A stretch of DNA of 64,000 bases from Dehalococcoidia bacterium (GTDB taxonomy: Bacteria; Chloroflexota; Dehalococcoidia; Lucifugimonadales; VXLM01). Location: assembly GCA_965242665.1 (NCBI GenBank), contig OZ251484.1, positions 1,470,249 through 1,534,248 on the forward strand. The letters are read 5' to 3'. The notes beneath the pieces are model-generated. The model did not search any database and was not told the origin of the DNA. It worked only from the letters and a program-made list of their open reading frames with translations. Both the position numbers and the translations under genes were made by a program. Below, piece after piece: positions 6,927-62,539 of this stretch; the stretch's first letter is position 1; each line of letters starts with the position of its first letter.

Positions 6927-8654
6927 TCACTCCCGCGCGTCTGGGGCGAACTCCACCTCCCAAATGCGGTCGGTGCCGTCGAACTGCCCGGTGACGATCC
7001 GCGCGATGCCGTACTGTGGAAGACCGACCCCGGCCAGACACTTGCCGTCGAACAGCACGCCGCGCACGTCGAAGTCAAAGTCGAGGTTGTCGAACCCATG
7101 CTCCCTACGGCGACTGTCCGGAAGATCGTCGAGAGCCTCGGGAAAGACGTGCAGGAAGAAGGGCACATCAGTATCGGCGCCGCCGCACGGCTCCTTGACG
7201 TAGTACAAATTGCCCCCATCGAGGTACACGTCGAACTCCGAGCGCGCAACGGGTTCGTTGGAAGTGATCGATTGGTACTCGGAGATGAGTTTGGGCCCTT
7301 GCACGACATGCGCTATACTCCAAACCTCCGCCCAATCGAGTCGGACTCGACCTGTGCGAATCCCTGCGATGTCGTACTGCGGGAGATCGACGCTGGCCAG
7401 ACATCTGCCGTCGAATAGCAAGCCGCGGTTGCCGACAGCGAAGTCGAATCTGTCGAACTTATGCTCCCTGCGGCGAATGTCCGGAAGATCGTCGAGGGCC
7501 TCGGGAAAGACGTGCAGGAAGAAGCGCGCATCGAGATCCGATCTGTTGCACGGCTCCTTGAGGAAGTACACCGTGCCGTCAATGAGATACACGTCGAAAT
7601 CCTTCTGAGCCAAGGGCTCGATGGACGTGACCGACCTATACGTGGATCGATGCCATGCCGTCAAGCCGGCCATGTCGTAGAGGAACAATTGCCGGTTCTG
7701 TGGAGTGAGGAGTGCGTCCGTGGCGAATCGTCGGCGAGCGACGAGGAATTTGTGACCCGCAGTAGAAGGGTATCCAAAATCTATGAAGGCCAAGTTTAGA
7801 TAGTACGACACTGCGTGCAGAGGCAGCAGTTCTCGGATGCCGCCGCGATCGGTGACGATGACCGTCCCTCCCGCAGTCGCCTCGCGCATGGCAAGCGCGT
7901 CCCGCTCCGCCGCCTTCGCTGCCTTCGCCGCTCTCTCCTCCGCGTAGTACCCAGCGAAGCCTCTCATCTGGAAGCTGGAGACTGCAAAGAGCGCGGCTGC
8001 GGCCACGGCAACGGCCGCGATGACGCCGTCCCGACCGGCCAGCCTCCTCGCCAACAGCAGGACGATGGTGAAGAAGACCAACGGGAGGCCGATATAGTAG
8101 ATACTCTCGAAGTCATTGAGTGCGGTATTGTGGCGCATTGGCAGCGCCCAGAAGAAGCCGAACGATGCCAGGGTAACGAACAGGATTCTCAGACGAACGA
8201 ACAGAGAGCCGATCAGACACGCCGCAGACAGAACGACGCCGAGTACGACGACCCTGTCTTTCGGCAGCCACGCAGGACCTTGAGCCGTATTGCCCTCCCC
8301 AAGCAAGGCGTAGGGAATGAACATTCGGACGATGTCTCGGAACTGCCCTTCCAGGAAAGAACTCCAGCCTATGTGATCGGCACTTCCGATCCCGCCAGAC
8401 CCGGTGCGCTTCAGCATAGACTTGAAGGACGGCAATTCCGTCAGCGGCGTTTCCCCGCCTAATGCGGCGTACTCCATCGTGAAGTTGAAGGTGAGGATGG
8501 ACAGGCCAAACCCCAGCACAACTGCGCCCAGCAGCAGGTAGCGGCTGCGAAGCAGCGCGGAGGCCGCGCGTTTTACTTGACATAATACGGGGGGGGGGGG
8601 GGGGGGGGGTAGAAGTTGCGGAGGCAGAACGCGCCCGCAACAGGTCGCGCGCAA
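6927..8654 (-). CDS. Large membrane protein, C-terminal portion (TM segments followed by two tandem ~110-aa extracytoplasmic repeat domains). Probably the same gene as 8113..9303, interrupted at the poly-G tract.
   Basis: This ORF begins with a poly-Pro stretch translated from the homopolymer. Hydrophobic helices follow (LLLGAVVLGFGLSILTF...). The segment FDVYLIDGTVYFLKEPC...FFLHVFPEALDDLPD...RRREH... is then duplicated in tandem (nt ~7000-7300 and ~7340-7640). Confidence 0.55.
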   Translation of the reverse strand: MRATCCGRVLPPQLLPPPPPPPVLCQVKRAASALLRSRYLLLGAVVLGFGLSILTFNFTMEYAALGGETPLTELPSFKSMLKRTGSGGIGSADHIGWSSFLEGQFRDIVRMFIPYALLGEGNTAQGPAWLPKDRVVVLGVVLSAACLIGSLFVRLRILFVTLASFGFFWALPMRHNTALNDFESIYYIGLPLVFFTIVLLLARRLAGRDGVIAAVAVAAAALFAVSSFQMRGFAGYYAEERAAKAAKAAERDALAMREATAGGTVIVTDRGGIRELLPLHAVSYYLNLAFIDFGYPSTAGHKFLVARRRFATDALLTPQNRQLFLYDMAGLTAWHRSTYRSVTSIEPLAQKDFDVYLIDGTVYFLKEPCNRSDLDARFFLHVFPEALDDLPDIRRREHKFDRFDFAVGNRGLLFDGRCLASVDLPQYDIAGIRTGRVRLDWAEVWSIAHVVQGPKLISEYQSITSNEPVARSEFDVYLDGGNLYYVKEPCGGADTDVPFFLHVFPEALDDLPDSRRREHGFDNLDFDFDVRGVLFDGKCLAGVGLPQYGIARIVTGQFDGTDRIWEVEFAPDARE

Positions 8655-21189: not shown

Positions 21190-21600
21190 CAAGGTAAACG
21201 GAAACCGGCTTACCGTTTACCTTTGCGGCATGGATTGCGCCCGGGCCGCAAAAGGTTGGACTCTCCGTCATTCCCGCCGGGTCTCGTCATTCCCACACCC
21301 TCCCACGTCATTCCCGCGTAGGCAGGAATCTCCTCAGGCAGCAAGAGGGCGAGACAGGCCGTTGGTGTCATTCCCGCGCAGGCGGGAATCTCCGGTATCT
21401 GCCTATGCCGCCGGATCCGACCCCCCGGTCATTCCCGCGCAGGCGGGAATCTCCGTCTACGTCATTCCCACGAAGGCAGGAATTTCTGTCATTCCCGCGC
21501 AGGCGGGAATCTCCCGTTGCGCGATTGGACGCACCGCTTTGAGAGTTGCCGTCCCCCAGCCGTCATGTCGCAAAACGGAAACCGGCGGGGCATTGACGAA
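21190..21600 (+). repeat. Composite MITE-like element: 5' hairpin, a conserved left flank, an array of gtcattccc units and palindromes, and a conserved ~90-bp right flank
   Basis: The left and right flanks are nearly identical to those of the copy at 40455-40735. They include ...gggccgcaa(a/c)aggttgga(c/t)tctccgtcattcccgccg... and ...ttgcgcgattggacgcaccgc...gccgtcatg(t/c)cgcaaaa. Confidence 0.85.
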
Positions 21601-25244: not shown

Positions 25245-25507
25245 CACGTCATTCCCACACCCTACCCACGTCTTCCCGCGAAGGCGGAAATCTCCCCCGG
25301 CTGTACCGCAAGCCAGGTCAAGTCCGCCCGTCATTCCCGCGAAGGCAGGAATCTCCCCCCGGCTGTACCGCAAGCAGGTCAAGTCCGCCCGTCATTCCCG
25401 CGAAGGCGGAAATCTCCCCGTCTGTACCGCAAGCAGGTCAAGCCCGCCCGTCTGTACCGCAAGCCAGGTCAAGTCCGCCCGTCATTCCCGCGAAGGCGGG
25501 AATCTCC
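25245..25507 (+). repeat. Repeat-element array with a ~60-bp period (four palindromes, each preceded by ccggctgtaccgcaagc(c)aggtcaagtccgccc)
   Basis: Four tandem copies of ...ctgtaccgcaagcaggtcaagtccgcccgtcattcccgcgaaggcgg(g/a)aatctcc... are visible. Confidence 0.9.
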
Positions 25508-29040: not shown

Positions 29041-29300
29041 CCCGTCATTCCCACCCACGTCTACGTCACTCCCGCACCGCCTACGTCATTCCCACCCATG
29101 TCTACGTCATTCCCGCGAAGGCGGGAATCTCCCCCTCATACCACACAACCCCCACGTCCGGCACATCCTGCACCGCCTCCCGTCATTCCCACACCCTCCA
29201 CGTCACTCCTGCACCGCCCACGTCATTCCCACAACACACCCACGTCATTCCCGCGAAGGCGGGAATCTCCCCAATCGACAATCAGAAATCACAAATCATC
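29041..29300 (+). repeat. Repeat-element array (two palindromes plus about eight gtcattccc units), followed by the secondary caatc(g/a)acaatc repeat
   Basis: Read directly from the intergenic region. Confidence 0.9.
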
Positions 29301-29760
29301 AATCCCCCTCCACCGCCTCATACACCCTCACCCCCCTCCTGCTCACAGCCCGCAGCCGTCCCTCCCTCTCCAACGACCGCATCGCCCCCTGAACCGCCGG
29401 CGCGCCATGCCTCCGAAACTTCCCCATGATCTTCCCCTGCGCCTTCGGACGCTCGCAATACTCCAACACCTGCTCCGCAAGCAAATCATCCACCTCAGGA
29501 AGCGCCGAACGCGGCACGACCAACGTAACCCCCGCGTTCCCATCCACATCCTCCCCAAACATGTACTCCAACCGACCCTCATGCCTCCGCAAGAACGCCC
29601 GCAAACGCTTCCGCAGCACGCCCCCCACCCCGCTCGCGCCGTACCCATGCACCACCTCCAATCCTCCCCCAGACCGACGCAGCGCCCCGTTATACGCCTC
29701 AATGAACGCAGGCAGCGCCTCCGACCACGTCTGCCCATGCAAATCCAACGTCTCCATCAC
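29299..29760 (-). CDS. Smr-domain protein
   Basis: METLDLHGQTWSEAL carries the LDLHG motif that is diagnostic of Smr (MutS2 C-terminal-like) nicking-nuclease domains. Confidence 0.7.
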   Translation of the reverse strand: MMETLDLHGQTWSEALPAFIEAYNGALRRSGGGLEVVHGYGASGVGGVLRKRLRAFLRRHEGRLEYMFGEDVDGNAGVTLVVPRSALPEVDDLLAEQVLEYCERPKAQGKIMGKFRRHGAPAVQGAMRSLEREGRLRAVSRRGVRVYEAVEGD

Positions 29761-29825
29761 TCCCTACCCCCGCAAAACTACTCCGCCCCTACGCATCCAC
29801 CCATCACTGCCCCAAATCTGCCCAC

Positions 29826-29893
29826 GCCACTCCCGCACCGCCTACGTCATTCCCACAACACTCACGTCATTCCCGCGAAGGCGGGAATCTCCC
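29826..29893 (+). repeat. Repeat element (units plus a palindrome)
   Basis: The sequence reads cactcccgcaccgcctacgtcattcccacaacactcacgtcattcccgcgaaggcgggaatctcc. Confidence 0.9.
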
Positions 29894-33636: not shown

Positions 33637-33797
33637 TCATTCCCACACCCGTCTACGTCATTCCCGCGTAGGCGGGAATCCACACCCCCCGTCATTCCCT
33701 TCGCCATCCCGGTCGTCCCCTTTCTCCAACGTCATTCCCACACCCGTCTACGTTATTCCCGCACCCACCCCCGTCATTCCCGCGCAGGCGGGAATCC
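33637..33797 (+). repeat. Repeat-element array (two palindromes plus gtcattccc units)
   Basis: Read directly. It lies between the helix-turn-helix gene and the PspA-like gene. Confidence 0.9.
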
Positions 33798-33806
33798 ACG
33801 CCCCCA

Positions 33807-34328
33807 TCACCACACACCCTTGTCTGTCCGCTTGATGATCTTCATCTTCTGACCATCCCGATCCTTCATATCCGACTCGATGATCCGCTTCTCCTTCCGC
33901 AGCAACTCCACAGCCTCCCGCACCGCGTCCTCCCCAAAATCCTCGTTGAGATGAGCGATCAAGAGCACTGTCCGCCCCCCCCGGGTCAACATATCATTGA
34001 TAGCGTTCTTGCACGACTTCACCAACGCCGCGCGCTCCTCCTCGTCCATCTCCCGCACCCGCCACCGCGTCGGCTCCAAATCCACATCCGGCGTAATCGG
34101 CACCTTTGACCCTCCCCCCGACCGATGCCCCTCCAACCACTCATCCACCTCCGACCGCCGAAACCTCCACGCCGAACCCAACTTGAACGCAGGAATCTTG
34201 CCCTCCTGCGCCCAACCATATATCGTACGCTCGGACATGCCCAAATACCGCGACACCTCCGCCAACGACATCAACCCAGGCACGCCCGCGCTCCCTCCGC
34301 TATCTCCCACGATCACTCCTGCCAACAC
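33807..34328 (-). CDS. Excisionase-family helix-turn-helix (HTH_17-type) DNA-binding protein with a ~110-aa C-terminal domain of unknown function
   Basis: LMSLAEVSRYLGMSERTIYGWAQEGKIPAFKLGSAWRFRRSEVDEWL is a canonical HTH_17/excisionase-type helix-turn-helix. The start is uncertain: GTG at 34328, or the internal M at 34271. Confidence 0.6.
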   Translation of the reverse strand: MLAGVIVGDSGGSAGVPGLMSLAEVSRYLGMSERTIYGWAQEGKIPAFKLGSAWRFRRSEVDEWLEGHRSGGGSKVPITPDVDLEPTRWRVREMDEEERAALVKSCKNAINDMLTRGGRTVLLIAHLNEDFGEDAVREAVELLRKEKRIIESDMKDRDGQKMKIIKRTDKGVW

Positions 34329-34514
34329 CAGATTTCCCGCAGCTCATGTCACCCCGCAGCCAACTATGACACCATACAACAACCAATATCATACATCTCA
34401 ACCTCATGTCAAGCTATGTCAAGAAATAGCAAACCCCCAAAATCTCCACTCCCCAAGAAATCCCCGAACCACCCCACCTCCAACCCAACCCCCGTCTACC
34501 TACCGCCACCTCCC

Positions 34515-34668
34515 CCATCATTCCTGCACCCCGTCTACGTCATTCCCGCACCCCGTCTACGTCATTCCCGCACCCGTCTACGTCATTCCCGCGTAGGCGG
34601 GAATCCCCAACTCCCACCCACCTACCGCCTCCACTCACCCACGTCATTCCCGCGTAGGCGGGAATCCC
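34515..34668 (+). repeat. Repeat-element array (two palindromes plus four units)
   Basis: Read directly from the intergenic region. Confidence 0.9.
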
Positions 34669-37813: not shown

Positions 37814-39454
37814 GTGGCCAGACGCCGGCTAACCGCACTCTGCGCTTGCGCGCTGGCAGGCGCACTAAGCGCCGCCTGTTGGTCCGCCCCTGCATCACCC
37901 GACCCGGCCCCCAATACCCCAGCTCACCGAACCGCAGAACCCGCCGCTGCCGTCCTCACGCCCCCGCGCCCAACGAACACGCCCAACCCCCTTCCCCCCA
38001 CCGCAACCCCCATCGTGATCTACGTCGGCCCCTCCGTGGCCACCATGGTCGTCCTCCTGTCCGATACTCCCACCCCAACCCTCACCCCAACACCCACCCA
38101 AACCCCAACCCGCACTCCGTCCCCCACACGGACGCCCGCACCGACGCACACGCCAACACCCATCATCCCCACACCCACGCCTACCCCCACTCCGACTACT
38201 GCTCCGAGCGCCTCCACGGTCGATACCCCAACCTCGCAACTCCCATCGACCGACACGACGCCTACGCCCATTCCCACGCAGACACCCACTCCAGAACCCA
38301 CCCCAACACCTTCACCGTCCCCCACACAGACGCCCACACCAGAACCTACCCCAACACCTTCACCGTCCCCCACGCAGACACCCACCGCCACACCGTCTCC
38401 CGTCATAGTCCACAGTCCAACGGCAACCCCAACACCATCGCCGTCCCCAACCCCCACTCCCACCCCCGCCACTCCGCAGCCAACCCCTGACGGATCCGAC
38501 GACCCCAGCTTGACCCCCGCAGAAATCTTCTCCATCGTCAGACCATCCATCGTCCACATAGCAGTCGCCAAGGAACCGGAAGTCGGGCAAAACGCGGGAA
38601 CGCAGAGAAGCGACGCCGTCGGTACAGGCATCGTCTGGAACGATGAAGGCCACATCCTGACCAGCGCCCACCTCGTCGAAAACGCCCAATCCATTACCGT
38701 CACCCTCCACGACGGCAGAAGCTTCTTCGCAGAACTCAAAGGCAGCGACACCAACTCCGATACCGCCGTAATCGAACTGCCCCCCCTGAACTTCGACCTC
38801 CAACCAGCAACCCTAGGCGACTCCTCCACACTCACCGTCGGACAACCCATCTTCGCAATCGGTCACGCCCTAGCCATCCCCGGAGACCCCATCTTCACCG
38901 ACGGCATCGTAAGCAGAACCGGAGTCACCATATCCGCAAACGCCCAACTATCCCTCATCGACCTCATCCTCCATACCGCACCCATCAACGAAGGCAACAG
39001 CGGCGGACCCATCGTCGACGCAAACGCCCTCGTCGTCGGAATCAACACCGCCGTCCTCGACCAAGCACGCGGCATCGGATTCGCCATCAACGTAAACGTC
39101 GCAACAACCGTCGCACGCCAACTCATCGAATTCACCGAAGTCCGACGCGGCTCCATCGGCATAACCCCCATCGACCTATCACCGCAACTAATCGCACAAC
39201 TCGGCATTACAGGCCTCCCAGACGACCTCCAAACCGGCGTCTACGTCGTCCGCGTCCGCGAAGGCTCCCCCGCACACGACGCAGACATGCGAAGAGGCGA
39301 CGTCATCGTGCGCATCGACCAAACCCCCATCCAAAACACCCAAGACCTCTCGAACTTCCTCCTAGAACACCAACCCGGCGAACCCGTCCAAATCTTCTAC
39401 TACCGCGGATCCACCGAACGCTCCGCCTTCATCACCCTAGCAGAACAACCCTAA
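37814..39454 (+). CDS. HtrA/DegP-family trypsin-like serine protease with a C-terminal PDZ domain and a ~170-aa Pro/Thr-rich N-terminal linker
   Basis: A signal/lipobox-like N-terminus is present. The catalytic triad context is HILTSAH…DTAVIEL…GNSGGPIV. The PDZ region reads ...[31 protein letters not shown].... The start codon is GTG. Confidence 0.85.
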
Positions 39455-39790
39455 CCCCCCACGTCATTCCCGCGCAGGCGGGAATCCAACCCCCCACGTC
39501 ATTCCCGCGCAGGCGGGAACCCACCGCACCGAATTTGACACAACAGAACCCACGTACTACCATAGACCCATGACCACTCCAACAAAACCACAGCCCAAGG
39601 AGCCACCTTGCAACCCCCAATCATCAATCTGCAACCTGCAATCATCAATCGACAATCTGCAATCACAGATTCCACGCCCCCGTCATTCCCGCACCCTCCC
39701 ACGTCATTCCCGCGCAGGCGGGAATCTAGCACTCTGCAACCCCCAATCATCAATCGACAATCATCAATCATCAATTCCCCCCTCTCGCCC
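39455..39790 (+). repeat. Cluster of palindrome elements plus the secondary repeat tgcaacccccaatcatcaatcgacaatc
   Basis: Three ...gtcattcccgcgcaggcgggaa... copies are present. The 28-bp motif is repeated twice. Confidence 0.9.
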
Positions 39791-40454: not shown

Positions 40455-40735
40455 CGGCTTACCGTTCACTGTTGCGGCCCGGGCGCAATCCGGGCCGCAA
40501 CAGGTTGGATTCTCCGTCATTCCCGCCGAGTCTCGTCACTCCCGCACCCTCCCACGTCATTCCCGCACCCTCCCACGTCATTCCCGCACCCTCCCACGTC
40601 ATTCCCGCACCCTCCTACGTCATTCCCGCGTAGGCGGGAATCTCCCATTGCGCGATTGGACGCACCGCCTTGGAGAGTCGCCGTCCTCCAGCCGTCATGC
40701 CGCAAAAGGAAACGGAACCGGGCGCGGCATTGCCA
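40455..40735 (+). repeat. Composite MITE-like element (second copy): hairpin ttgcggcccgg-gcgcaat-ccgggccgcaa, the left flank, four cgtcattcccgcaccctcccac units and a palindrome, and the conserved right flank
   Basis: Its flanks match the 21190-21600 copy. Confidence 0.85.
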
Positions 40736-41402: not shown

Positions 41403-42533
41403 TCAAGGTCCTCCGCGCCGCCGACGCCCCATAATCCTGTTGCGCTTGGCCCCTTCCGACCGGTTCTTCGCTAGTTCCGCGACTGACGGGTAGCGTCGTT
41501 TGGCGCGCTTACTCCCTGCCGACCGCTTCCCCCCAAGTGGATAAGGTTGTTTGAACGACTTGTTCCGCTCTCCGTCTTTTGTGAGCCTCCACCTGTAGGC
41601 GTCCAGGAAAAGTCCATCCACAATTCGTACAGTGTTCGGTGGACAAGGTATCTTGAAGTCCAGGTCAAGCTTGCCATCAAAAGTGAGAACCCAGCGATCC
41701 TTGTCCAAGGGGCGTCTGTCCACGATATACATCGTGTTAGGCGGATATGGCTGCTCGTACTGCTTGTCGCGTTTGCCGTTGGAGTCAAGTAGTCGGCCGG
41801 CGGCATCCAGGGAATGTCCATCCACAACCCACTTCGTGCCGCGCGGGCGCCCCCCGTACCCCTTGTGGCGCTTGCCGCTCTTGGTAAGTACATACCCAGC
41901 GGCGTCCACACGCATCCCATGTACAAACTCACGGGTTTGATTCTTGGGGGGTTGCACAGGAGGTTTTTTACCAGGTTCCCTCCCCTTGTCTACTAGATTG
42001 ACGCCTTGCCTCCATAGAACCGTTGCCCGCAGGCAATCATCAACCGCGGATTCTGCCATCAGATCGAAGGAGGTTTTCAGTTTCTTGTCCATGAACCCCT
42101 TTTCGCACGCGTCGTAGATGTACCAGTGACGACCGTTTGTCACAGCGAGATACTGCACTTCGGCTGCGAGGCAATAGCCGATACCCTGTATCGCCGCGTC
42201 TCGAAGGCGAAGGGTTTTCGATGGATTCCCAGTTTCTGGCATACCCTCTAGGGGTGTGCTTTCCACGGGGTCTGAGATCCTCTTTGCCTCTATCAGAACC
42301 GCAGGCTTCTGCTCACCGTCCTTGAAGAGGGCGTAGTCTACTTTACCGCGTCCTACCGAGTACTGGCGTCTCACCTGTGACAAGTCATCGGTAGCCCATC
42401 CCAACTCTCGAAGCAACGGGTCGATCAGAACGGAGCAGGTATTCGCCTCGTCCCACGTCCGCCCGTCGGGGTTAGCATTGATTTGCTCCCTGAGCTTCTC
42501 GATCTGTAACCACAGATTCTCCTCAACCGACAT
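41403..42533 (-). CDS. PD-(D/E)xK (HsdR-N-like) nuclease-domain protein with C-terminal ~33-aa repeats (paralog C)
   Basis: The segments ...CSVLIDPLLRELGW..., ...VDYALF... and ...AVLIEAKR... form the type I restriction enzyme R-subunit N-terminal (HSDR_N-like) PD-(D/E)xK core. A conserved promoter/leader shared with the two paralogs lies upstream. Confidence 0.6.
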   Translation of the reverse strand: MSVEENLWLQIEKLREQINANPDGRTWDEANTCSVLIDPLLRELGWATDDLSQVRRQYSVGRGKVDYALFKDGEQKPAVLIEAKRISDPVESTPLEGMPETGNPSKTLRLRDAAIQGIGYCLAAEVQYLAVTNGRHWYIYDACEKGFMDKKLKTSFDLMAESAVDDCLRATVLWRQGVNLVDKGREPGKKPPVQPPKNQTREFVHGMRVDAAGYVLTKSGKRHKGYGGRPRGTKWVVDGHSLDAAGRLLDSNGKRDKQYEQPYPPNTMYIVDRRPLDKDRWVLTFDGKLDLDFKIPCPPNTVRIVDGLFLDAYRWRLTKDGERNKSFKQPYPLGGKRSAGSKRAKRRYPSVAELAKNRSEGAKRNRIMGRRRRGGP

Positions 42534-42605
42534 TCCCGCAGACCCCCTTCTCATCTCCTGCGCATTCTACCACAGCCGCCCTCGCCGCTCCCGACTCACA
42601 CAGTC

Positions 42606-43652
42606 TTATCGCCGCGGGCGTGGTGAGGGTTCATCTGTGGTGGAAGGATATATCTTCCACGGATGAGTAGCTGGTTTGGAGTAAGGCTCAGGATAGCCAC
42701 GAGCGCGCTGATGGCGCGTGTTCTGTTTGGTGAGTATGTAGCCGTCGGCATCCAGATAGTGTCCATCCTCAATCCGCACGGCACTAGGCGGATAGGGATT
42801 AGGTCTGCGTTTGTGGATCCGTTGGTCCGGCTCGCCACTGGCTGTGAGTACGAAGCCGTCGGCGTTCAGGAAACGCCCATCCACGATTCGCTTGGTGTTC
42901 GGCGGCAAGGGGTTCTTGAATTTCCCGTCTCGTCTGCCTTTGGGTGTGATTACCCTCCCATCCTCGTTCACGGGATATCCATCCACGATTCGCTTCGTGC
43001 TCGGCGGGTACGGCTTCTTGTAGTTCTCGTCTCGTTCGCCGTCGGGGTTGAGAACGAAGCCGTCGGCGTCTAGATGATGTCCATCTACAACCCGTTTCGT
43101 GCCGGGAGGTTGTCCACGGTTCTCGTCCTTGGGCTTACTGTCTGGCTGTATCGTCCCCCTGGTTGCTGGGCCGCGCGGTTGCAACTCACGCGCCCTTAGA
43201 CAATCCACAGCTGCAGTCGGAGACTTCAGATCAAATTCTACGACCCGCTTTTCGCTGAGCGGAACCTGCTTGTGCGTATCGTAGACTTCCCACCGCTGTC
43301 CGTCCGTCACAGCGAAGTGTGATATTGCCTGTGGAGCGCAGTACTCTAGTCCTTGGGCGGCCGCACGTTGGAGGTCTTCCGATAGTTTCTTGGCTTCGAT
43401 TACCACAGCAGGCCTCTCTCGACCGTCGTTGAAGAGTGCATAATCTCCCCATCTATCACTCCTACCAGGCACCTCCAGCTTATACTCGGGTTTCACCTGG
43501 GCCCGGTCCCCGGTGTCCCAACCCATCCCCTGCAACAACGGATCGATGAGCGCGTACCTGGTTGCCCACTCGCTTTTCGCAAGTTCCTCCCCATGATCAT
43601 CGATACGCTTCTTGAGCGTCTCGATCAGTCCCTGTAGCTCCTTGACGTTCAT
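42606..43652 (-). CDS. PD-(D/E)xK (HsdR-N-like) nuclease-domain protein with four C-terminal ~33-aa repeats (paralog A)
   Basis: MNVKELQGLIETLKKRIDD...TRYALIDPLLQGMGWDT...DYALF...AVVIEAKK. The repeats read KRIVDGxxLDADGFVLTxxGxxDxxYKKPYPP. Confidence 0.6.
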   Translation of the reverse strand: MNVKELQGLIETLKKRIDDHGEELAKSEWATRYALIDPLLQGMGWDTGDRAQVKPEYKLEVPGRSDRWGDYALFNDGRERPAVVIEAKKLSEDLQRAAAQGLEYCAPQAISHFAVTDGQRWEVYDTHKQVPLSEKRVVEFDLKSPTAAVDCLRARELQPRGPATRGTIQPDSKPKDENRGQPPGTKRVVDGHHLDADGFVLNPDGERDENYKKPYPPSTKRIVDGYPVNEDGRVITPKGRRDGKFKNPLPPNTKRIVDGRFLNADGFVLTASGEPDQRIHKRRPNPYPPSAVRIEDGHYLDADGYILTKQNTRHQRARGYPEPYSKPATHPWKIYPSTTDEPSPRPRR

Positions 43653-43752
43653 TCCCGCAGAACCCCCTTGTCATCTCCCGCGCATTGTACCACGCCGCTT
43701 CCGCAACCGCTACATCCTCCTCGCTCCCGCGCACATTCTACCACAGCCGCCC

Positions 43753-44571
43753 TCAGCGACGGCGGCCCCTCGGTCTGATTTCCTTGCCGTTGGCGTCAAA
43801 GAATTTTCCGTCCACGATTCGCGCCGTGCCAGGCGGGCAGGGGTACTCGAAATTCGAGGATCGATTGCCCTTGTCTGTGAGCACCCAGCCTGCGGCGTTC
43901 AGGAACCTTCCATCTAGAATCCATCTCGTGCCGCGCGGACGGAGTTTCCTGAAGCCTTTGTTTTCCTTGCCGTTTTCTGGGGAGCGTACTTTGCCGTCAG
44001 CGTCCACGCGCCATCCATGCACAAACTCTATGTGCCAGGTGCTCCTCCACAGCTCCTTCGCTTGCATACAGTCTTTGATTGCCTTCTTGCCCTCCATCAG
44101 ATCGAAGGATCTGATCTGTCTCTCTGCAGGTCCATATCCAAGCTTTCTGTCGTAAACATACCAGCGCAAGCCATCCGTCGCCGCGAAGTATCGTACTCCG
44201 TCGGTGCTGGAATAGTTCTCAGCCTGCAAAGCCGCTGCTAGTTCTTTTTTCACATCGCGTTTCCCAGCCCCAAATAGGCTCTTGGCCTCTATCAGGAGGA
44301 CCGGCTTCGTCTCTAGGAAGAATCCACGCCCATCGAGGTCGTCCCCGAAGAGAGCGTAGTCCGCTCTACCGTCCTTGGACTTGAGCGGATACTCTGGTCG
44401 TACTTGCGCCGGGTCCTCAGTGTCCCACCCCAGCTCCCGTAGCAATGGGTTGACGAGTGCATACCGCGTCAAAGCCTCGCTCTCCTCAAGTCTGCTCCCA
44501 TGATTGAGGATGCGCGCCTTGAGCGTCTCGATCAGTTCCCGCAGAGATTCGACTTTAGCCTTCTTCAACAT
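43753..44571 (-). CDS. PD-(D/E)xK (HsdR-N-like) nuclease-domain protein with C-terminal repeats (paralog B)
   Basis: MLKKAKVESLRELIETLKARI...TRYALVNPLLRELGWDT...DYALF...VLLIEAKS. Confidence 0.6.
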   Translation of the reverse strand: MLKKAKVESLRELIETLKARILNHGSRLEESEALTRYALVNPLLRELGWDTEDPAQVRPEYPLKSKDGRADYALFGDDLDGRGFFLETKPVLLIEAKSLFGAGKRDVKKELAAALQAENYSSTDGVRYFAATDGLRWYVYDRKLGYGPAERQIRSFDLMEGKKAIKDCMQAKELWRSTWHIEFVHGWRVDADGKVRSPENGKENKGFRKLRPRGTRWILDGRFLNAAGWVLTDKGNRSSNFEYPCPPGTARIVDGKFFDANGKEIRPRGRRR

Positions 44572-44658
44572 TCCCGCAGCACCCCTCTGTATCTTGCGCG
44601 CATTGTACCACCACGCTTCCGCATCCGCTACATCCCCTTCGCCCCCGCGCGCATTCTA

Positions 44659-44850
44659 TCACGGCCGGCCTCGCCGCTCCTGATCCTCGTAATCCCCCGA
44701 CGTGGGAATGAACAGCCCGCGAAACAGGTACAATAGGAAGACGATGATCACCCCAATGCCGCCGATGGTAACGTTCAGTGTGAACACCCCAACGCAGAAC
44801 ATCGCGATTGCGAGTACGAACAACCCCACGAAGACCCAATAGCGCTTCAT
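44659..44850 (-). CDS. Small (63-aa) 2-TM membrane protein
   Basis: A GGAGGGACGGC-ATG ribosome-binding site is present. The sequence MKRYWVFVGLFVLAIAMFCVGVFTLNVTIGGIGVIIVFLLYLF... is hydrophobic. Confidence 0.45.
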   Translation of the reverse strand: MKRYWVFVGLFVLAIAMFCVGVFTLNVTIGGIGVIIVFLLYLFRGLFIPTSGDYEDQERRGRP

Positions 44851-44981: not shown

Positions 44982-46382
44982 ATGGACGATACCGCCAGAA
45001 TCCAAGAAGAGATCGACCGGCTGAACGAAGAGACCGGCGGCGCAATCCGCCGCTACGGATTCGACTTCGACCGCCCGCAGATAGAAGCCTTCCTCCGCAG
45101 CCGCACGGTCGACGAGACCATCGACGCACTCCGCCAGCTGGCGGAGTGGCAGCAAGTCGTCAACCGCCAAAACCACGACGGCGTAACCCTCACTCCCGCC
45201 CTCGCGGACTTCCTCGCAGGCCCCGGCGCCGTTGGTGAAAAGCTGGCGCACCTCGAACGACTGCGCCAACGCACGCGCAACGGCGAATTCGACCGCGCCA
45301 ACACCATCCAACGCGACCTCGAATACCACCGCTACAACTGGGCCTACCGCGAAGAAATCTCGGACGCATCCACCCGTCCCGCAAACGGCCCCTACGACGA
45401 GTTCGCGGCCCTGCCCACCCTTCCCCCGCAAACCTGCGAACCATTCGTCCTCGATGGGCAGCATCTGGTCGAGGCTCGCCGCGCGGCATTCGAGGCATAC
45501 ACCCTCCTGCGATTCCTCCAAGAATTCGCATCCTGCACGTCCCGCCCCATCCTCCTCGTCGGAAACGACCGATACGGACGACAATGGGGCGTCGAACCCC
45601 TAGAAGACCGCCTGAGCCGCAGCTTCACCATCCTCTATCCCCGCGTCCCCTCTCACAAATCGACCCGCCTGACCGTCCCCAACCAAATCGAAAACACCGG
45701 CGTCCGCTCCGGATTCGACCGCCAAACGATTCGCCTCCTCAGCGAACGAATGCCGCACGTCATCATCGTCGACGCCAGGAACGTGGGACAAGGAAAAGAC
45801 CGCGCACTCATGCGGATGTCCCGCGGATGCCGCGACTACGCAAACTGGTTCATCGCCTTCAACGACCTGCGCGCAGACGGCGACGCCTCGAAATACGAAC
45901 ACAAGATGCCGCACCCCCCAAATCACTACCCCGAACTAAAGCGATGGTTCGAGTTCGTCCAAGTACAACGAAAGATACGCCCATGGATCCAGCCGGGCGA
46001 CACATACTCCATGACGATGTGGGCCCCAAAGTTCACCGACGAGACCGTCCTCGGAGACTTCAAGGTGAAGACCAGACCCGTCGAGTACGGCTCCGACGAT
46101 CCCCAGGTCGTCCTAGCCAACCCGCTCGTCTACCGCACAGACCAAGACGAGCCCAACCTCCATGAGAACTTGCGCGGCAACCGCCCGTACTACTTCGACG
46201 GGCCCGAGCGCCACGTCCGCGCAAAGTTGCAGTTCGGGTTCGGAGAGCACGGCCTGGAGTCCAGGGTAGAGGGGAACACCACGGACGAGTTCGTCGAGGC
46301 CGTCCAACAGTTCATTCGGCAAGAGGTCGCGCGGTTGGCGGAAATGGAACCGCAGCTTATTGAGGATGCAGCCGTCCAATGA
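44982..46382 (+). CDS. Hypothetical cytoplasmic protein (466 aa). It is the first gene of the ABC permease/ATPase operon.
   Basis: A long ORF with ordinary codon usage and no recognisable motif. It is on the same strand as the downstream ABC genes, though a ~200-nt gap with its own extended -10 separates them. Confidence 0.55.
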   Translation: MDDTARIQEEIDRLNEETGGAIRRYGFDFDRPQIEAFLRSRTVDETIDALRQLAEWQQVVNRQNHDGVTLTPALADFLAGPGAVGEKLAHLERLRQRTRNGEFDRANTIQRDLEYHRYNWAYREEISDASTRPANGPYDEFAALPTLPPQTCEPFVLDGQHLVEARRAAFEAYTLLRFLQEFASCTSRPILLVGNDRYGRQWGVEPLEDRLSRSFTILYPRVPSHKSTRLTVPNQIENTGVRSGFDRQTIRLLSERMPHVIIVDARNVGQGKDRALMRMSRGCRDYANWFIAFNDLRADGDASKYEHKMPHPPNHYPELKRWFEFVQVQRKIRPWIQPGDTYSMTMWAPKFTDETVLGDFKVKTRPVEYGSDDPQVVLANPLVYRTDQDEPNLHENLRGNRPYYFDGPERHVRAKLQFGFGEHGLESRVEGNTTDEFVEAVQQFIRQEVARLAEMEPQLIEDAAVQ

Positions 46383-58162: not shown

Positions 58163-60319
58163 TCAGTACACACTCTCCCCCGTAGGAGGCATAAGCGAAG
58201 TTCCCTGAATATGTATAGAATTCACAGAATGCCATACTTCCGATGGAACCCTCCCCGTAAGACCAGAATTGCCGTCGACATATATATTAAGATACTTGCT
58301 GATACCCCCTAACTCCAATGGAATGTTTCCCATAAGATCATTGTTCGAGAGAACCAACCCCCTAAGATTCCGCAGATTCCCCAACTCAGACGGGATCTCA
58401 CCCGCAAGACCGTTATTAGAGAGGTCCAGGGCCCGAAGCTTGGACAGATTCCCCAACTCAGACGGGATCTCACCCGCAAGAGATTGATGAGTAATGAACA
58501 CCATCTCCAGTTCATCGAGTTCCCCTAACTCCGCAGGAAGAATCCCAGTGAGTCTGGGGTATCCCGTAAAATCTTGATAATTCAATCCTCGAACGCGGAG
58601 TGGGAATGAAGTAGATGGATAGGACGGGTGAAAAACAAGGCCTTGCCATTCTGTTATGGGGACATCAAAACTCCAGTTCAGCGCAGCGTCTCCCGCCAAA
58701 ACATCTCGAATACGGAGAAGCGCTTCACAGTCCCGCACCAACCCAGGATTGTCCTGCGGATCAGGAACCACATACCCATCCGAGCACACCTCTACGTTCT
58801 TCCATTCAGACGCCGCCGCCAACTTCTCACTCGGCGTCCTTCTCACTAGAATGCGCTTGTCGGATCCATTTGACGACAACGTGTATAGCACAACTCCAAA
58901 GTCAGGATCGCTAGAGAAGATAGTCTCGAGCATGATCCGAACCGCGACCCGCGAACCATCCGGAGACCACGACACCAACGACGGCCACTCGATCTCCTCA
59001 ATTATCCGCATATCGGATCCATCTATCCCGACCGAGAATATCCCAGCATAGACAGGCGCCCCATCGTCCGACCCCATAGACTCAGGAACCCCGACGAACC
59101 GTATCTCAGAGCCATCTGGAGACCACGCTATGGATGTGGCTACAAGATTCGCTGCAACCCGCTGTTCCCCAGAATCCGTCGACTCAGGAATCGCGCTAAA
59201 CCGTACATCAGAACCATCCGACGTCCACAGCGAAATCCCCTTGAGACCCGCTATCGCCCGTTGATCCGAACCATCAGGCGACGAGACCACGATGTCCGAT
59301 ATGTCTTCGCTCGACCTCGCAAACGCTACCAAACCCCCATCTGGAGACCACACAGGCGACTCCAATACCATATCAATCAGTCGTGTCAAGTTCGATCCGT
59401 CCTCACCAACTGTGTACGCATGTCCACGTGCAAAGAACGCCAACCTCCTCCCATCTGGAGACCACGCAGGCGGACTCAACGCAATATGACGAGGCCCGAT
59501 GTCGTCTCGCAAGCCCGATCCATCAGGAGCAATTATAGACAGCCTGCCACTGCCCACGAACGCTATACGACTCCCATCTGGAGACCACACAGGAAAATGG
59601 TCAACACCAACGTTCTCGGTTAGCCGACGCGGGTCAGTCCCGTCTATCTTCCGCGTGACTATCTCGTAGTTATACCGCTTTCGATCCCATACATGGTGAT
59701 ACCCTGCACCGTAATACCTATACCCAGCAGTGGTGGTATCCACTTCCGGTCCCGTAGGATACTCGCATGAGGCATACACCACCTGTGTCCCGTCCGGTGA
59801 AACGTCCGCGTACGTGCCATGGAGAGAAACATAGCCCGGATTCGCGTCAACTATCATCCGAAGGCGCGTTCCTCCCGCATCCACCAAGTAAATGTTCGAG
59901 CCATCGGTCGGGTCTCCTCTACCAGAGAGTGGATTACCTCGAGGTTGGTCGAGTATGATGTCAGTTCCATCTTGTGTCCATCTGAGAAGGTCAGGGATCA
60001 CATCTCCTATGTCTCCAAAGAAAATATGCCCAGTCCTCGGTCCACAGTTAGGATTCGAACTTACTGCATCAGCAGGAGGAGCAGGAGGAGGAGTTGTAGG
60101 ATATACTGCAGGAGTATAGTTTGGGTTGGGGATATAGCTTTGAGGTGTAGGAGCAGACGTAGGAGTTGGTCTAGGAAGGGAGACTTCAGGCGTAGGAGAT
60201 GGGTCATACGGAAGGGGCGGATCATCACCGCAGGCCAACGTGAGTATCCCTCCACCCAACGCGAGGGTGAACGATATCCAAACCCACTTGCTCAACGTCC
60301 GCAGCAACATCTTTCTCAC
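58163..60319 (-). CDS. Lipoprotein with a TolB-like WD40 β-propeller (WSPDG repeats) and C-terminal plant-type leucine-rich repeats
   Basis: A signal peptide with lipobox (...TLAC) and a PT linker are present. The motif (V/A)WSPDG(S/T)xIAF occurs at least 8 times. The C-terminal LRRs read LxGxIPxELGNLxxLxxLxLSNNxLxGxIP. Confidence 0.75.
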   Translation of the reverse strand: MRKMLLRTLSKWVWISFTLALGGGILTLACGDDPPLPYDPSPTPEVSLPRPTPTSAPTPQSYIPNPNYTPAVYPTTPPPAPPADAVSSNPNCGPRTGHIFFGDIGDVIPDLLRWTQDGTDIILDQPRGNPLSGRGDPTDGSNIYLVDAGGTRLRMIVDANPGYVSLHGTYADVSPDGTQVVYASCEYPTGPEVDTTTAGYRYYGAGYHHVWDRKRYNYEIVTRKIDGTDPRRLTENVGVDHFPVWSPDGSRIAFVGSGRLSIIAPDGSGLRDDIGPRHIALSPPAWSPDGRRLAFFARGHAYTVGEDGSNLTRLIDMVLESPVWSPDGGLVAFARSSEDISDIVVSSPDGSDQRAIAGLKGISLWTSDGSDVRFSAIPESTDSGEQRVAANLVATSIAWSPDGSEIRFVGVPESMGSDDGAPVYAGIFSVGIDGSDMRIIEEIEWPSLVSWSPDGSRVAVRIMLETIFSSDPDFGVVLYTLSSNGSDKRILVRRTPSEKLAAASEWKNVEVCSDGYVVPDPQDNPGLVRDCEALLRIRDVLAGDAALNWSFDVPITEWQGLVFHPSYPSTSFPLRVRGLNYQDFTGYPRLTGILPAELGELDELEMVFITHQSLAGEIPSELGNLSKLRALDLSNNGLAGEIPSELGNLRNLRGLVLSNNDLMGNIPLELGGISKYLNIYVDGNSGLTGRVPSEVWHSVNSIHIQGTSLMPPTGESVY

Positions 60320-60469: not shown

Positions 60470-62539
60470 CTACCTCTGCGGCTCCGAATCATCCTGCGCT
60501 TCCCGATCCTCGCCCGGATCGGCGGGCCTCCGAGGTTTCGAGGCCGCGCGGCGTCGGGAGGACATCCGTCCAAGCACGACAGCGATTGCGATGCAGCCGC
60601 CCCAGAACGGGCTGAACACGATCAACCAAATGGCCGCAGTCGTCGCCGCACGTACCAGAGCCGATAGCGCGCGGACGGCCTCCTTGCTAGTGCCGGTCAG
60701 ATCGTACCCGCCCACAATCCAACCCTCGCCCTGTATCACTCTGACGGTGACCTCGCTGGACGCCTCGACGAGCCCGCCCTCGCTGTCCCCGGTTACCGTA
60801 AGCTTGGCCGTGTACTGCGACGAATCCTCCCTGATGAGGATGTACGTGTGCTCGACCTCAATCGAGTTGCCCTCGTCGAGCGCGCCCTCCACCGGAGACG
60901 TGCCGTCCCCAAAGTCCCAGCGGTAGCGCATGTTGCCAACCCCGTCCGGACGGTTGAGCGTCCCCCGCAGCCGAACCGCCGACCCAGCCTCGACAGTCAT
61001 CCACTCGCCCGCAGACACGTTTATCACAGGAACCTCGGTAACCGTAACCACGATCTTGTCCGACCCGCGCACGCTCCCAGCTTCTCCCGTCCCCACCATC
61101 TTGATCTGCACGATGTACGGCGACTCCTCCGCGCTCTGATAGGCGTGGCTCGCGACCGCCGTCACCATGCGGCTGGCATCCTCCGTCAAGATAACGCGGG
61201 TGTTCTCCACCAAGTACGAACCGTCCCCAAAGTCCCACGTGTATGTGAACTCGTCGATACCCTCCGGCGGCTCGAAGAACGCGCGAAACCGCATATCCCG
61301 CCCGACCGCGCCAGTCTGGTCATCGCCCGCATCAACACGCATCTGCTCCGTATCGACGACGGTCACCTGCACCGTGTCCCGCCCAAACAGCGGGCTCGAT
61401 TCGGATGCCCCGCTGATCCGCACCTCCACGAAATACGGGGAGTCCCGATGATCCCCAAATACGTGCTGCACAGCCGCGGTCACGCGCGTCCCAGGCTCGG
61501 ACGTCGGCGCGGTGAACGTCGAAGAGACCGGCGCCGAATTGTCCCCGAAGTTCCACTCCACTAGGTACTCGGACGACTCGTCCGTCGTCTGGAAGGTCGC
61601 CTTGAAGCGCACCGTCTGCCCAACGTTCACGGTCAAGTCGGGCCCCGCGTTCACGGAAAGATCGACGCGTTGAAGCTGCAGACGTATCCTCATCAGCGAG
61701 AACGCCGCTGTCTCCTCCAAACGCTTCAGCGTACCAAGCAGCCGCTCGATATCCTCCTGCACATTGAACAACTCCCTCTGTATCTCCAATGCATCGCGCG
61801 CGTTCTGGGCCTGCTCCAAGAGATTGAGCATCGCCGTCTCCGTCGCCCGGTAGTTGTTCAACCGCGCCTGCGCGTCGAAGTACTCGTCCGTTACATCCTT
61901 GCTCGTCGTAACTTCCGACTCAACCGCAGCCGCCAGCATTCTCATCCGCGAAATCGCCTCGTCCAGACGAGCCGCAGGAACCCGCACGGCAATGTCTCCA
62001 ACGAACTCGCTGCCCCGGCTGGATGACACCGTCCAACCCCCCATATTGGCGGCAACGGACGCCACGCCGTCCATGGACGACTGGATGTCCTCGACCACGA
62101 GGCTCATGTCCACCGTCCGCACGACGATGCGCTGCTGCTGGACGAGCGTCGCCTGCTCTCCCCCGTCGGCTGCATCCGACGCGGTATCCCCGGCTTCGCC
62201 CCCAGCCGCCGCGGACTGTGCAGCCGTATCATCGGCTGCGGACTCCTCCGCAACTGCAGCGTCCGACGCGCTCGTGACCATGGGCGCCGGCGTTGCTGCC
62301 GGCGCTGCAAAGGCGGCAGGGGCCGGCGTCGGAGCCACAGACGCGGGCGCGGACATAGCGGCCGGTGCGTCCGCGGCAGCTTCGCCAGATCCGTGGCTCT
62401 CCAAGTAGGAGATGGATTCACCGCTGTCGTCGCTTCCACCGCACGCCAACAACGCCGCGCTCATCAGCGCGACCCCAACGAGCAATACCGCCGTCCATAG
62501 ATTCATGCTAACGTTCTTCATATGTCCATCTCCTCTCAC
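60470..62539 (-). CDS. DUF4349-like domain lipoprotein with three PKD domains and a C-terminal membrane anchor
   Basis: A signal peptide with lipobox (LLAC) and an Ala-rich linker are present. The DUF4349-like region reads ...VVRTVDMSLVVEDIQSSMDGVASVA...YRATETAMLNLLEQAQ.... Three WxFGDG(S/T) PKD motifs and a C-terminal TM helix follow. Confidence 0.65.
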   Translation of the reverse strand: MRGDGHMKNVSMNLWTAVLLVGVALMSAALLACGGSDDSGESISYLESHGSGEAAADAPAAMSAPASVAPTPAPAAFAAPAATPAPMVTSASDAAVAEESAADDTAAQSAAAGGEAGDTASDAADGGEQATLVQQQRIVVRTVDMSLVVEDIQSSMDGVASVAANMGGWTVSSSRGSEFVGDIAVRVPAARLDEAISRMRMLAAAVESEVTTSKDVTDEYFDAQARLNNYRATETAMLNLLEQAQNARDALEIQRELFNVQEDIERLLGTLKRLEETAAFSLMRIRLQLQRVDLSVNAGPDLTVNVGQTVRFKATFQTTDESSEYLVEWNFGDNSAPVSSTFTAPTSEPGTRVTAAVQHVFGDHRDSPYFVEVRISGASESSPLFGRDTVQVTVVDTEQMRVDAGDDQTGAVGRDMRFRAFFEPPEGIDEFTYTWDFGDGSYLVENTRVILTEDASRMVTAVASHAYQSAEESPYIVQIKMVGTGEAGSVRGSDKIVVTVTEVPVINVSAGEWMTVEAGSAVRLRGTLNRPDGVGNMRYRWDFGDGTSPVEGALDEGNSIEVEHTYILIREDSSQYTAKLTVTGDSEGGLVEASSEVTVRVIQGEGWIVGGYDLTGTSKEAVRALSALVRAATTAAIWLIVFSPFWGGCIAIAVVLGRMSSRRRAASKPRRPADPGEDREAQDDSEPQR

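Follow-up and report, generated by a model that had tools for sequence, protein, structure and literature searches.

A window of 64,000 nucleotides (nt) from a Dehalococcoidia bacterium (assembly GCA_965242665.1, contig OZ251484.1, positions 1,470,249 to 1,534,248) contains an array of three neighbouring minus-strand open reading frames (ORFs), spanning window positions 41403-44571, in which a predicted nuclease domain is joined to a tail of tandem repeats. Gene C (43753..44571, minus strand, 272 amino acids (aa)) consists of an HsdR-N-type nuclease domain with approximately 2.5 repeats and ends in a basic RPRGRRR tail. Gene B (42606..43652, minus strand, 348 aa) has the same type of nuclease domain followed by a linker and four repeats, while gene A (41403..42533, minus strand, 376 aa) adds to this arrangement a highly basic tail of 40 aa. 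All three genes were defined from their ORFs, translations and Pfam matches. The ORF of gene A as mechanically called reaches 42554 (383 aa), and its start was set at 42533 on the basis of the conserved leader alignment and the orthologue P0121. Orthologues of gene C were also found (P0014, P0035 and P0124), while an exact record look-up with protein B gave no match. A first-pass annotation of this DNA, made from the letters alone, had called the same three genes with the same lengths and coordinates.

The N-terminal domains of A, B and C (approximately 160-178 residues) share 39-47% pairwise identity, and the motifs TRYALIDPLL..GW, DYALF and (V/L)IEAK were found in all three. All exceeded the gathering cutoff of the Pfam family HSDR_N (PF04313; 28.2 bits for A, 27.3 for B and 30.2 for C against 25.1), a narrow margin, with weaker Pfam matches of the array proteins to HSDR_N_2, MmeI_N and Mrr_cat. 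The domain covers residues 1-170 of A (42024..42533, minus strand) and 1-178 of C (44038..44571, minus strand), as delimited by Pfam, pairwise alignment and a 62-sequence family alignment. In B it covers residues 1-160 (43173..43652, minus strand) and carries D70, E86-x-K88 and Q100xxxY104. Across the 62 sequences (B numbering) E86, K88 and Q100 do not vary, while D70 and Y104 reach at least 90% conservation, with Y104 invariant in the 22 repeat-bearing sequences. Judged from this alignment, the five residues are the D...ExK core and the QxxxY motif, the second of which is typically seen in the nuclease domains of type I R subunits.

Searching the PDB with the family profile returned a fragment of Vibrio vulnificus HsdR (3h1t, E 6e-4), in which raDYaL was paired with RADYLL, vEAK with VEAK, sQGiqY with QQAKDY and TDG with TNG. 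The AlphaFold2 model of B had a predicted local distance difference test score (pLDDT) of 84 overall and above 90 over residues 1-160, and a Foldseek search with this model matched the nuclease domains of DrdV (8e-5), HsdR 3h1t (6e-4) and BpuSI (7e-4). The model has the restriction-endonuclease-like alpha/beta fold by both AlphaFold2 and Foldseek. Assignment of the predicted head to the HsdR-N-type PD-(D/E)xK nucleases, with intact catalytic motifs, is solid on these alignments and models. An HsdR-N-like PD-(D/E)xK domain had already been proposed in the first-pass annotation, and this proposal is upheld by the Pfam scores, the intact motifs and the Foldseek and profile matches.

Membership of two established nuclease groups was rejected. 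The proteins are not type I HsdR proper, as they lack an SF2 translocase module (no Pfam match to ResIII, DEAD or Helicase_C in any of A, B and C) and have no hsdM/hsdS neighbours, and they scored 9-18 bits against NCBIfam HsdR equivalogs with cutoffs of 550-729. Mrr-like type IV membership was discarded because Mrr_cat (PF04471) reached 15.3 bits against a cutoff of 21, and in gene A only. A weak match of the array proteins to REase_MTase_IIG was found with PADLOC.

Behind the head lies a tandem repeat with a period of 34 aa (102 nt) and the consensus x(I/F)VDGxxLDxxGxVLTxxGxRDxx(F/Y)xxP(Y/C)PPxTK. Conserved positions are V3, D4, G5, L8, G12, L15, G19, R21, P28 and P30, while about a dozen positions (1, 6, 7, 13, 17, 18, 20, 23, 26, 27, 29 and 32) are highly variable. 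The array of A (residues 202-336; 41526..41930, minus strand) has four units, of which the first is a degenerate FVHG variant. That of B (residues 187-326; 42675..43094, minus strand) has four units of 34 aa, the third extended to 38 aa by a 4-aa insertion, and that of C (residues 182-272; 43756..44028, minus strand) comprises a single full unit between a degenerate first one and a truncated last one. Homologues carry two to five copies, and DNA identity between the units is 61-75%. Acidic heads (pI 5-6) are followed by basic C-terminal regions, with a pI of 9.7-10.9 and a net charge of +8 to +24 (gene A, pI 10.6 and +24). The basic tail that closes A (GGKRSAGSKRAKRR...MGRRRRGGP; 41406..41525, minus strand) is kept in P0005, P0006, P0012 and P0123. 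Within the full-length protein the repeats were modelled by AlphaFold2 with a pLDDT of about 90, and the C-terminus of B modelled alone (pLDDT 82.7, predicted template modelling score 0.70) has short paired beta strands in each unit. The repeat unit is thus a predicted beta hairpin.

Only sub-threshold Pfam matches were obtained for the repeat (DUF3659, 22.2 against 24.8 bits; Choline_bind_2, 15.1 against 27), nothing significant was found in NCBIfam or PADLOC, and both phmmer and profile searches of the PDB returned nothing significant. The existence of a repeat and its lack of a recognisable family, both stated in the first-pass annotation, hold across Pfam, NCBIfam, PADLOC, the PDB and Foldseek, while its period of about 33 aa is corrected to 34. 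A search with a repeat model, which had also been proposed there, was run as a 34-position profile against 1.84 billion protein cluster representatives. This search returned 30 proteins at E <=0.001, and only about ten of the representatives contain a complete unit: the array subfamily, together with the 226-aa protein P0123, which has a Cys-rich head, and a few small single-copy proteins. The distribution seen in this search, with P0123 and the phage-like protein P0126, indicates that the repeat is a new and very narrowly distributed module usable by different effector heads.

P0126 (L169, 1237-3264; 675 aa) ends in an ADP-ribosyltransferase exoenzyme domain (PF03496, E 7e-24) and contains three dispersed half-units of the form VDxxGWALTxKGxRDPRFKKP, and is adjoined by a ChaB-domain gene. 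A further kind of array gene was observed in two relatives of the window (L085, 6878-7594; L087, about 7886-8509). It shares the promoter cassette, the 34-aa repeats and the basic tail of the other array genes and begins with MSVEE, and its head is a Cys-rich domain of approximately 110 aa (..YCG..x20..WCKRC..) that has no Pfam match. The protein matches P0123.

Each of the three genes is preceded by a similar upstream sequence. The cassette of gene C (44572..44683, minus strand) contains two TGnTAnAAT boxes (44592-44607 and 44643-44658), a GGGG Shine-Dalgarno sequence and the ATG; that of gene B (43653..43752, minus strand) has two boxes (43674-43689 and 43725-43740) and that of gene A (42534..42594, minus strand) has one (42554-42569). 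The five boxes are the only occurrences of TANAATGCGCGNNAGA in the window, against about one expected, and all are directly upstream of array genes. The upstream regions of B and C are 82% identical over 91 nt. Over 18 gene copies from eight loci, the 50 nt upstream have a mean column identity of 83%, in contrast to 36-60% identity between the N-domains of different allele classes, and the TG-n-TA-n-AAT extended -10 element, the GGGG Shine-Dalgarno sequence and the GAATG start context are invariant or nearly so. A strict sigma-70 -35/-10 scan found no site at the array, so the promoter call rests on the extended -10 element and on conservation. These cassettes are well supported as predicted promoter/leader elements, in agreement with the conserved promoter that the first-pass annotation had placed upstream of every copy. 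A riboswitch or structured leader was rejected, with no Rfam match and folding z-scores of -0.8 to +0.4.

One arm of a palindromic REP-like element, TCATTCCCGCG-N-AGGCGGGAAT, is identical to the sequence around the start codons of the three genes (CTGCGGGAATG). The element occurs 23 times in the window against zero expected and nearly always in one orientation. Its sites include 6144, 21308-21510, 25331-25503, 29107-29888, 33658-34665, 39464-39725 and 40620. The intergenic stretch downstream of the array (40530-40643) also has 4-5 tandem copies of a 21-nt sequence (CCCACGTCATTCCCGCACCCT) that includes a half-site of the element.

The locus was compared between the window and seven syntenic relatives (L001, L002, L004, L085, L086, L087 and L088). 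Six of the seven are from assemblies labelled PANK22-1, which denotes PRJNA555077 (Pankey et al. 2022) from Caribbean Agelas sponge tissue according to the supplement of PMC13083261, with A. sventres, A. clathrodes, A. dispar, A. citrina and A. tubulata as hosts; the seventh (L004) is from sample ERZ25068301. All relatives have the same borders, a 466-aa protein with a 63-aa ORF at one end and small membrane proteins with HtrA at the other, and the flanks are 96-100% identical to those of the window in L001 and L002 and 86% identical in L004. Between these borders the relatives have one to four genes from at least five allele classes. The order is C-B-A in the window, D-B-A' in L001 (A' being another head with an A-like tail), C-D-A in L002, and C-D followed by a gene of the P0007 type in L085, where a fourth gene shares the promoter and repeats and has a Cys-rich head. 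L087 contains two nuclease genes, a lipoprotein gene behind a copy of the promoter cassette and a Cys-rich-head gene. A single gene was found in L004, L086 and L088, followed in L086 by the start of a DPPF-motif DNA methyltransferase.

Sliding-window identity between loci jumps at two points, 43663 (53% to 98%) and 42577 (38% to 96%), each of which lies at a promoter cassette. This comparison shows a pattern of alleles swapped as blocks, with edges at the promoter cassettes. Individual proteins are also mosaic. P0010 and P0011 are 50% identical in the N-domain and 90% in the C-region, P0012 and protein A of the window 43% and 68%, and P0012 and P0007 80% and 52%, so that by alignment heads and tails are shown to have recombined independently. 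Synonymous divergence (dS) between gene C and its L002 counterpart was 0.42, compared with 0.06-0.14 for flanking genes, and the alleles must therefore be older than the divergence of the genomes. The ratio of non-synonymous to synonymous divergence (dN/dS) was 0.11-0.87 for array genes and 0.09-0.20 for flanking genes. Taken together, the comparison of loci shows a hypervariable cassette slot in Agelas-sponge Dehalococcoidia (SAR202-related). SecA encoded in the window shares 81% identity with a protein labelled Dehalococcoidia bacterium and 65-70% with proteins of the SAR202 cluster. A fixed copy number in relatives would have told against the first-pass annotation by its own terms, and copy number is not fixed, with one to four genes at this one site among the relatives. 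The annotation had also explained the array as a tandem triplication of a promoter-plus-gene cassette. Recent triplication or amplification was rejected because the paralogues are only 39-47% identical in the N-domain; the genes belong to different, old allele classes that have been swapped between strains.

Genes next to the array, in the window and in the syntenic loci, code for FtsX/ABC transporter proteins, the 466-aa protein, the 63-aa ORF, small membrane proteins and HtrA. The sole exception to the lack of an hsdM/hsdS-type neighbour is the methyltransferase fragment in L086 (an Agelas dispar contig), at 7245-7382, directly downstream of the array gene and at the contig end. The 63-aa ORF (44659..44850, minus strand) encodes two predicted hydrophobic transmembrane (TM) helices. 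It is immediately upstream of the array and shares its strand, with the stop codon of the ORF abutting the distal promoter box of gene C; it precedes the array in all eight loci and is a landmark of the insertion slot. The 466-aa protein (44982-46382, plus strand) is divergent from the array and conserved, with 26 members at >=90% identity, and has no match in Pfam, NCBIfam or PADLOC. Searches near the array gave neither a tRNA nor an Rfam family nor an integrase.

A wider family annotated as 'HsdR N-terminal domain-containing protein' (approximately 320 aa) has heads about 50% identical to those of the array. Its members are patchily distributed among metagenome-assembled genomes of Dehalococcoidia/Chloroflexota, Latescibacterota and Binatia, many with sponge-derived names, and assorted metagenome contigs, and 79 of 80 loci have just one copy. 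Where the array proteins carry repeats, these relatives have either an unannotated globular domain (about 130 aa) or a ComEA-like, DNA-binding helix-hairpin-helix (HHH) domain (PF12836, PF00633). The globular domain (...FPDGS...W...RWL...CPI...GQDPAQFKVRF), seen at loci L006-L084, is duplicated in P0078, P0099 and L063 and stands alone in P0290. It has no Pfam match, a profile search of the PDB was empty, and the domain's own profile search returned only truncated members of the wider family. The repeat-bearing nuclease subfamily was found only in symbionts from Agelas sponge tissue. A scan of genome contigs yielded the wider family and no repeat-bearing relative, a scan of JGI metagenomes likewise yielded the wider family only, no family members were found in 2.9 million viral contigs, and phage and plasmid collections contained only distant relatives of the N-domain (26-36% identity). 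For the wider family, an operon partner and a conserved gene context were both rejected, as no neighbours recur.

Other features of the window were recorded. GC skew on the plus strand is strongly and persistently negative over 24000-64000, with cumulative skew falling to -10. Long plus-strand ORFs at 25-36 kb are Arg/Pro-rich without a Pfam match, and are probably spurious antisense ORFs of minus-strand genes. The HtrA-like protease (37814-39454, plus strand) has a Pro/Thr-rich low-complexity region of about 200 aa at its N-terminus. A PD40+LRR protein and a DUF4349+PKD protein are encoded at 58163-60319 and 60470-62539, both on the minus strand; such repeat proteins are typical of sponge symbionts.

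The reading that we favour, with about an even chance of being correct, is that the array encodes solitary, methylase-independent nucleases that use the repeat tail for target binding and act in DNA conflict or defence. The head would cut DNA, while the tail would replace the globular or HHH module at the C-terminus of the wider family and supply binding to the substrate or target, a role suggested by its basic charge and by its position, which is that of the HHH and globular modules in the sister proteins. Diversity of both heads and tails may reflect an arms race with foreign DNA, in which case the proteins would act like solitary, type IV-like restriction or defence nucleases. Defence was among the options that the first-pass annotation had listed, and it is plausible. 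An accessory character, seen in the patchy spread of the wider family and in the methyltransferase gene beside the slot in L086, also speaks for this reading. The promoter cassette could double as the homology tract through which cassettes are exchanged.

Several observations count against this interpretation. DNA binding by the repeats is proposed from charge and domain position only, and Foldseek gave no structural analogue for the repeat module (best E 0.098). The presence of a Cys-rich-head gene in the L085 and L087 arrays implies that the repeat module is not bound to a nuclease role. In the window, the array is not adjoined by any methyltransferase, helicase or known defence gene, and the wider family, which sits among metabolic genes, has no conserved neighbours, methyltransferase or defence context. 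The best PADLOC match, to PDC-M54B, is weak (20.7 bits, E 3.5e-5) and covers about 70 residues of the N-domain. Positive selection was not detected, since dN/dS was never above 1 at the resolution of whole regions. Chimeric assembly at the repeated promoter tracts may also have affected L001, L002 and L085-L088, because these are short-read metagenome contigs; the window (on a 3.48-Mb contig) and L004 (2.09-Mb contig) are free of this concern.

The same sharp replacement of alleles at a conserved flanking element might be produced by selfish, homing-endonuclease-like cassettes, which would spread and replace slot alleles through cleavage and gene conversion and offer the host no protection. 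Such elements would be autonomous, as each array gene appears to be, with its own promoter and no partner genes; the slot lies within otherwise conserved synteny, and distant relatives of the N-domain are labelled 'endonuclease' in phage genomes. We consider this unlikely, given that several divergent cassettes stand in tandem rather than one element per target site, that the family is absent from the 2.9 million viral contigs, that no sign of an intron, an intein or a target-site duplication was found, and that a non-nuclease head uses the same cassette. A role as housekeeping DNA or RNA nucleases (in repair, recombination or structure-specific cleavage), with a C-terminal module that drifted and was duplicated under relaxed constraint, would fit a wider family that is single-copy at nearly all loci, among metabolic genes and outside any defence context, and would fit dN/dS below 1. 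It agrees poorly with the patchy distribution across phyla, with turnover of gene content within genomes that are roughly 95% identical, with alleles far older than their flanks and with the shuffling of heads and tails, and its probability is put as low as that of selfish cassettes. The first-pass annotation had listed a contingency locus among its options. Variation by repeat slippage is improbable, as the 102-nt repeats share only 61-75% DNA identity and short tandem repeats of near-identical sequence are not present.

Restriction of the repeat-bearing subfamily to Agelas tissue symbionts, and variation of array content among host species, could also point to symbiosis factors that are delivered to sponge cells, comparable to the eukaryotic-like repeat proteins known from sponge symbionts, with the basic tails acting as nuclear-localisation-like signals. 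The tail of gene A contains KRAKRR-like basic clusters, and LRR/PD40 and PKD proteins are encoded in the same window. There is little to recommend this possibility, as no signal peptide and no nearby secretion-system gene was found, the N-terminus forms a helix that is part of the nuclease fold itself, and the wider family also occurs in metagenome contigs that are not from sponges. Still more improbable are envelope proteins in which the hairpins bind cell-wall components or carbohydrates in the manner of choline-binding or CROP-like repeats. The resemblances in question are to dextransucrase glucan-binding repeats and TcdB CROPs, non-significant in Foldseek, and to the two sub-threshold Pfam models, and membership of the choline-binding hairpin repeats or DUF3659 was rejected at the level of both family model and fold. 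Surface variation and cell-wall binding, which the first-pass annotation had also offered, are unlikely for proteins with no signal peptide or TM segment, whose N-terminus is the first helix of the nuclease fold.

Three further candidates were rejected. A polymorphic toxin system is not consistent with an N-terminal nuclease that lacks a secretion domain or signal, with no small immunity ORF between cassettes. The repeat is not a TAL-effector repeat, as its units are predicted beta strands without a sequence match. Integron cassettes were dismissed since the 10 kb to each side of the array in the syntenic loci contain no integrase, and since the conserved element is 5' of the genes and promoter-like, with no significant hairpin.

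If the favoured reading of solitary defence nucleases is correct, the repeat would be a new binding module, without a fold analogue, for restriction-like nucleases, and these would be diversified by exchange of self-promoted cassettes and modules at a fixed chromosomal slot of an obligate-looking sponge symbiont. Sponge symbionts invest heavily in defence against foreign DNA, and the locus would then be a compact, strain-resolving marker of the arms race. A bolder version, which we regard as a long shot, is that the units form a modular nucleic-acid-recognition array in which the nuclease target depends on how many units there are, on their order and on their variable residues, so that strains could reprogram the specificity by shuffling heads, tails and cassettes. 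This would amount to a natural recombination-programmable nuclease system built on a new repeat fold, and the same repeat would also serve the Cys-rich domain and phage ADP-ribosyltransferase heads. The repeat is attractive for structural and binding studies because it is short, confidently modelled and fused to different heads, although practical reach is limited by the confinement of the repeat-bearing subfamily to one narrow lineage.

Among known systems, the N-domain of type I R subunits (PF04313, HSDR_N_2 PF13588 and HsdR 3h1t) shares with the array heads a common fold, D...ExK, QxxxY and T(D/N)G. Type I HsdR differs in having an SF2 translocase/helicase and hsdM/hsdS partners, whereas the array proteins are only 272-376 aa long and have a repeat tail instead. 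The best structural matches to the head are with the type IIL/IIG enzymes DrdV (7lo5) and BpuSI (3s1s) (8e-5 to 7e-4), a group that also includes MmeI; these are proteins of about 1000 aa with fused methyltransferase and target-recognition domains, neither of which occurs in the array proteins. Solitary, modification-dependent type IV nucleases of the Mrr type are analogous in architecture, as they also combine a PD-(D/E)xK nuclease with a separate binding module and have no cognate methylase, and they serve as the model for how the array proteins may work, but in the array proteins the domain order is reversed, the putative binding module is unrelated and Mrr_cat is below threshold. TAL effectors and TALENs are comparable by analogy only, in that tandem units of approximately 34 aa present a conserved scaffold with a few variable positions, here fused to a nuclease. 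Their units are two-helix and present in many copies, while those of the array are predicted beta hairpins in two to five copies, without similarity in sequence or fold. The wider HsdR N-terminal family, about 50% identical in the head, lacks the repeats and the promoter-cassette array. The head domain is known, and what is new is the repeat, its fusion both to the predicted nuclease and to other heads, and a slot whose cassettes are delimited by promoters.

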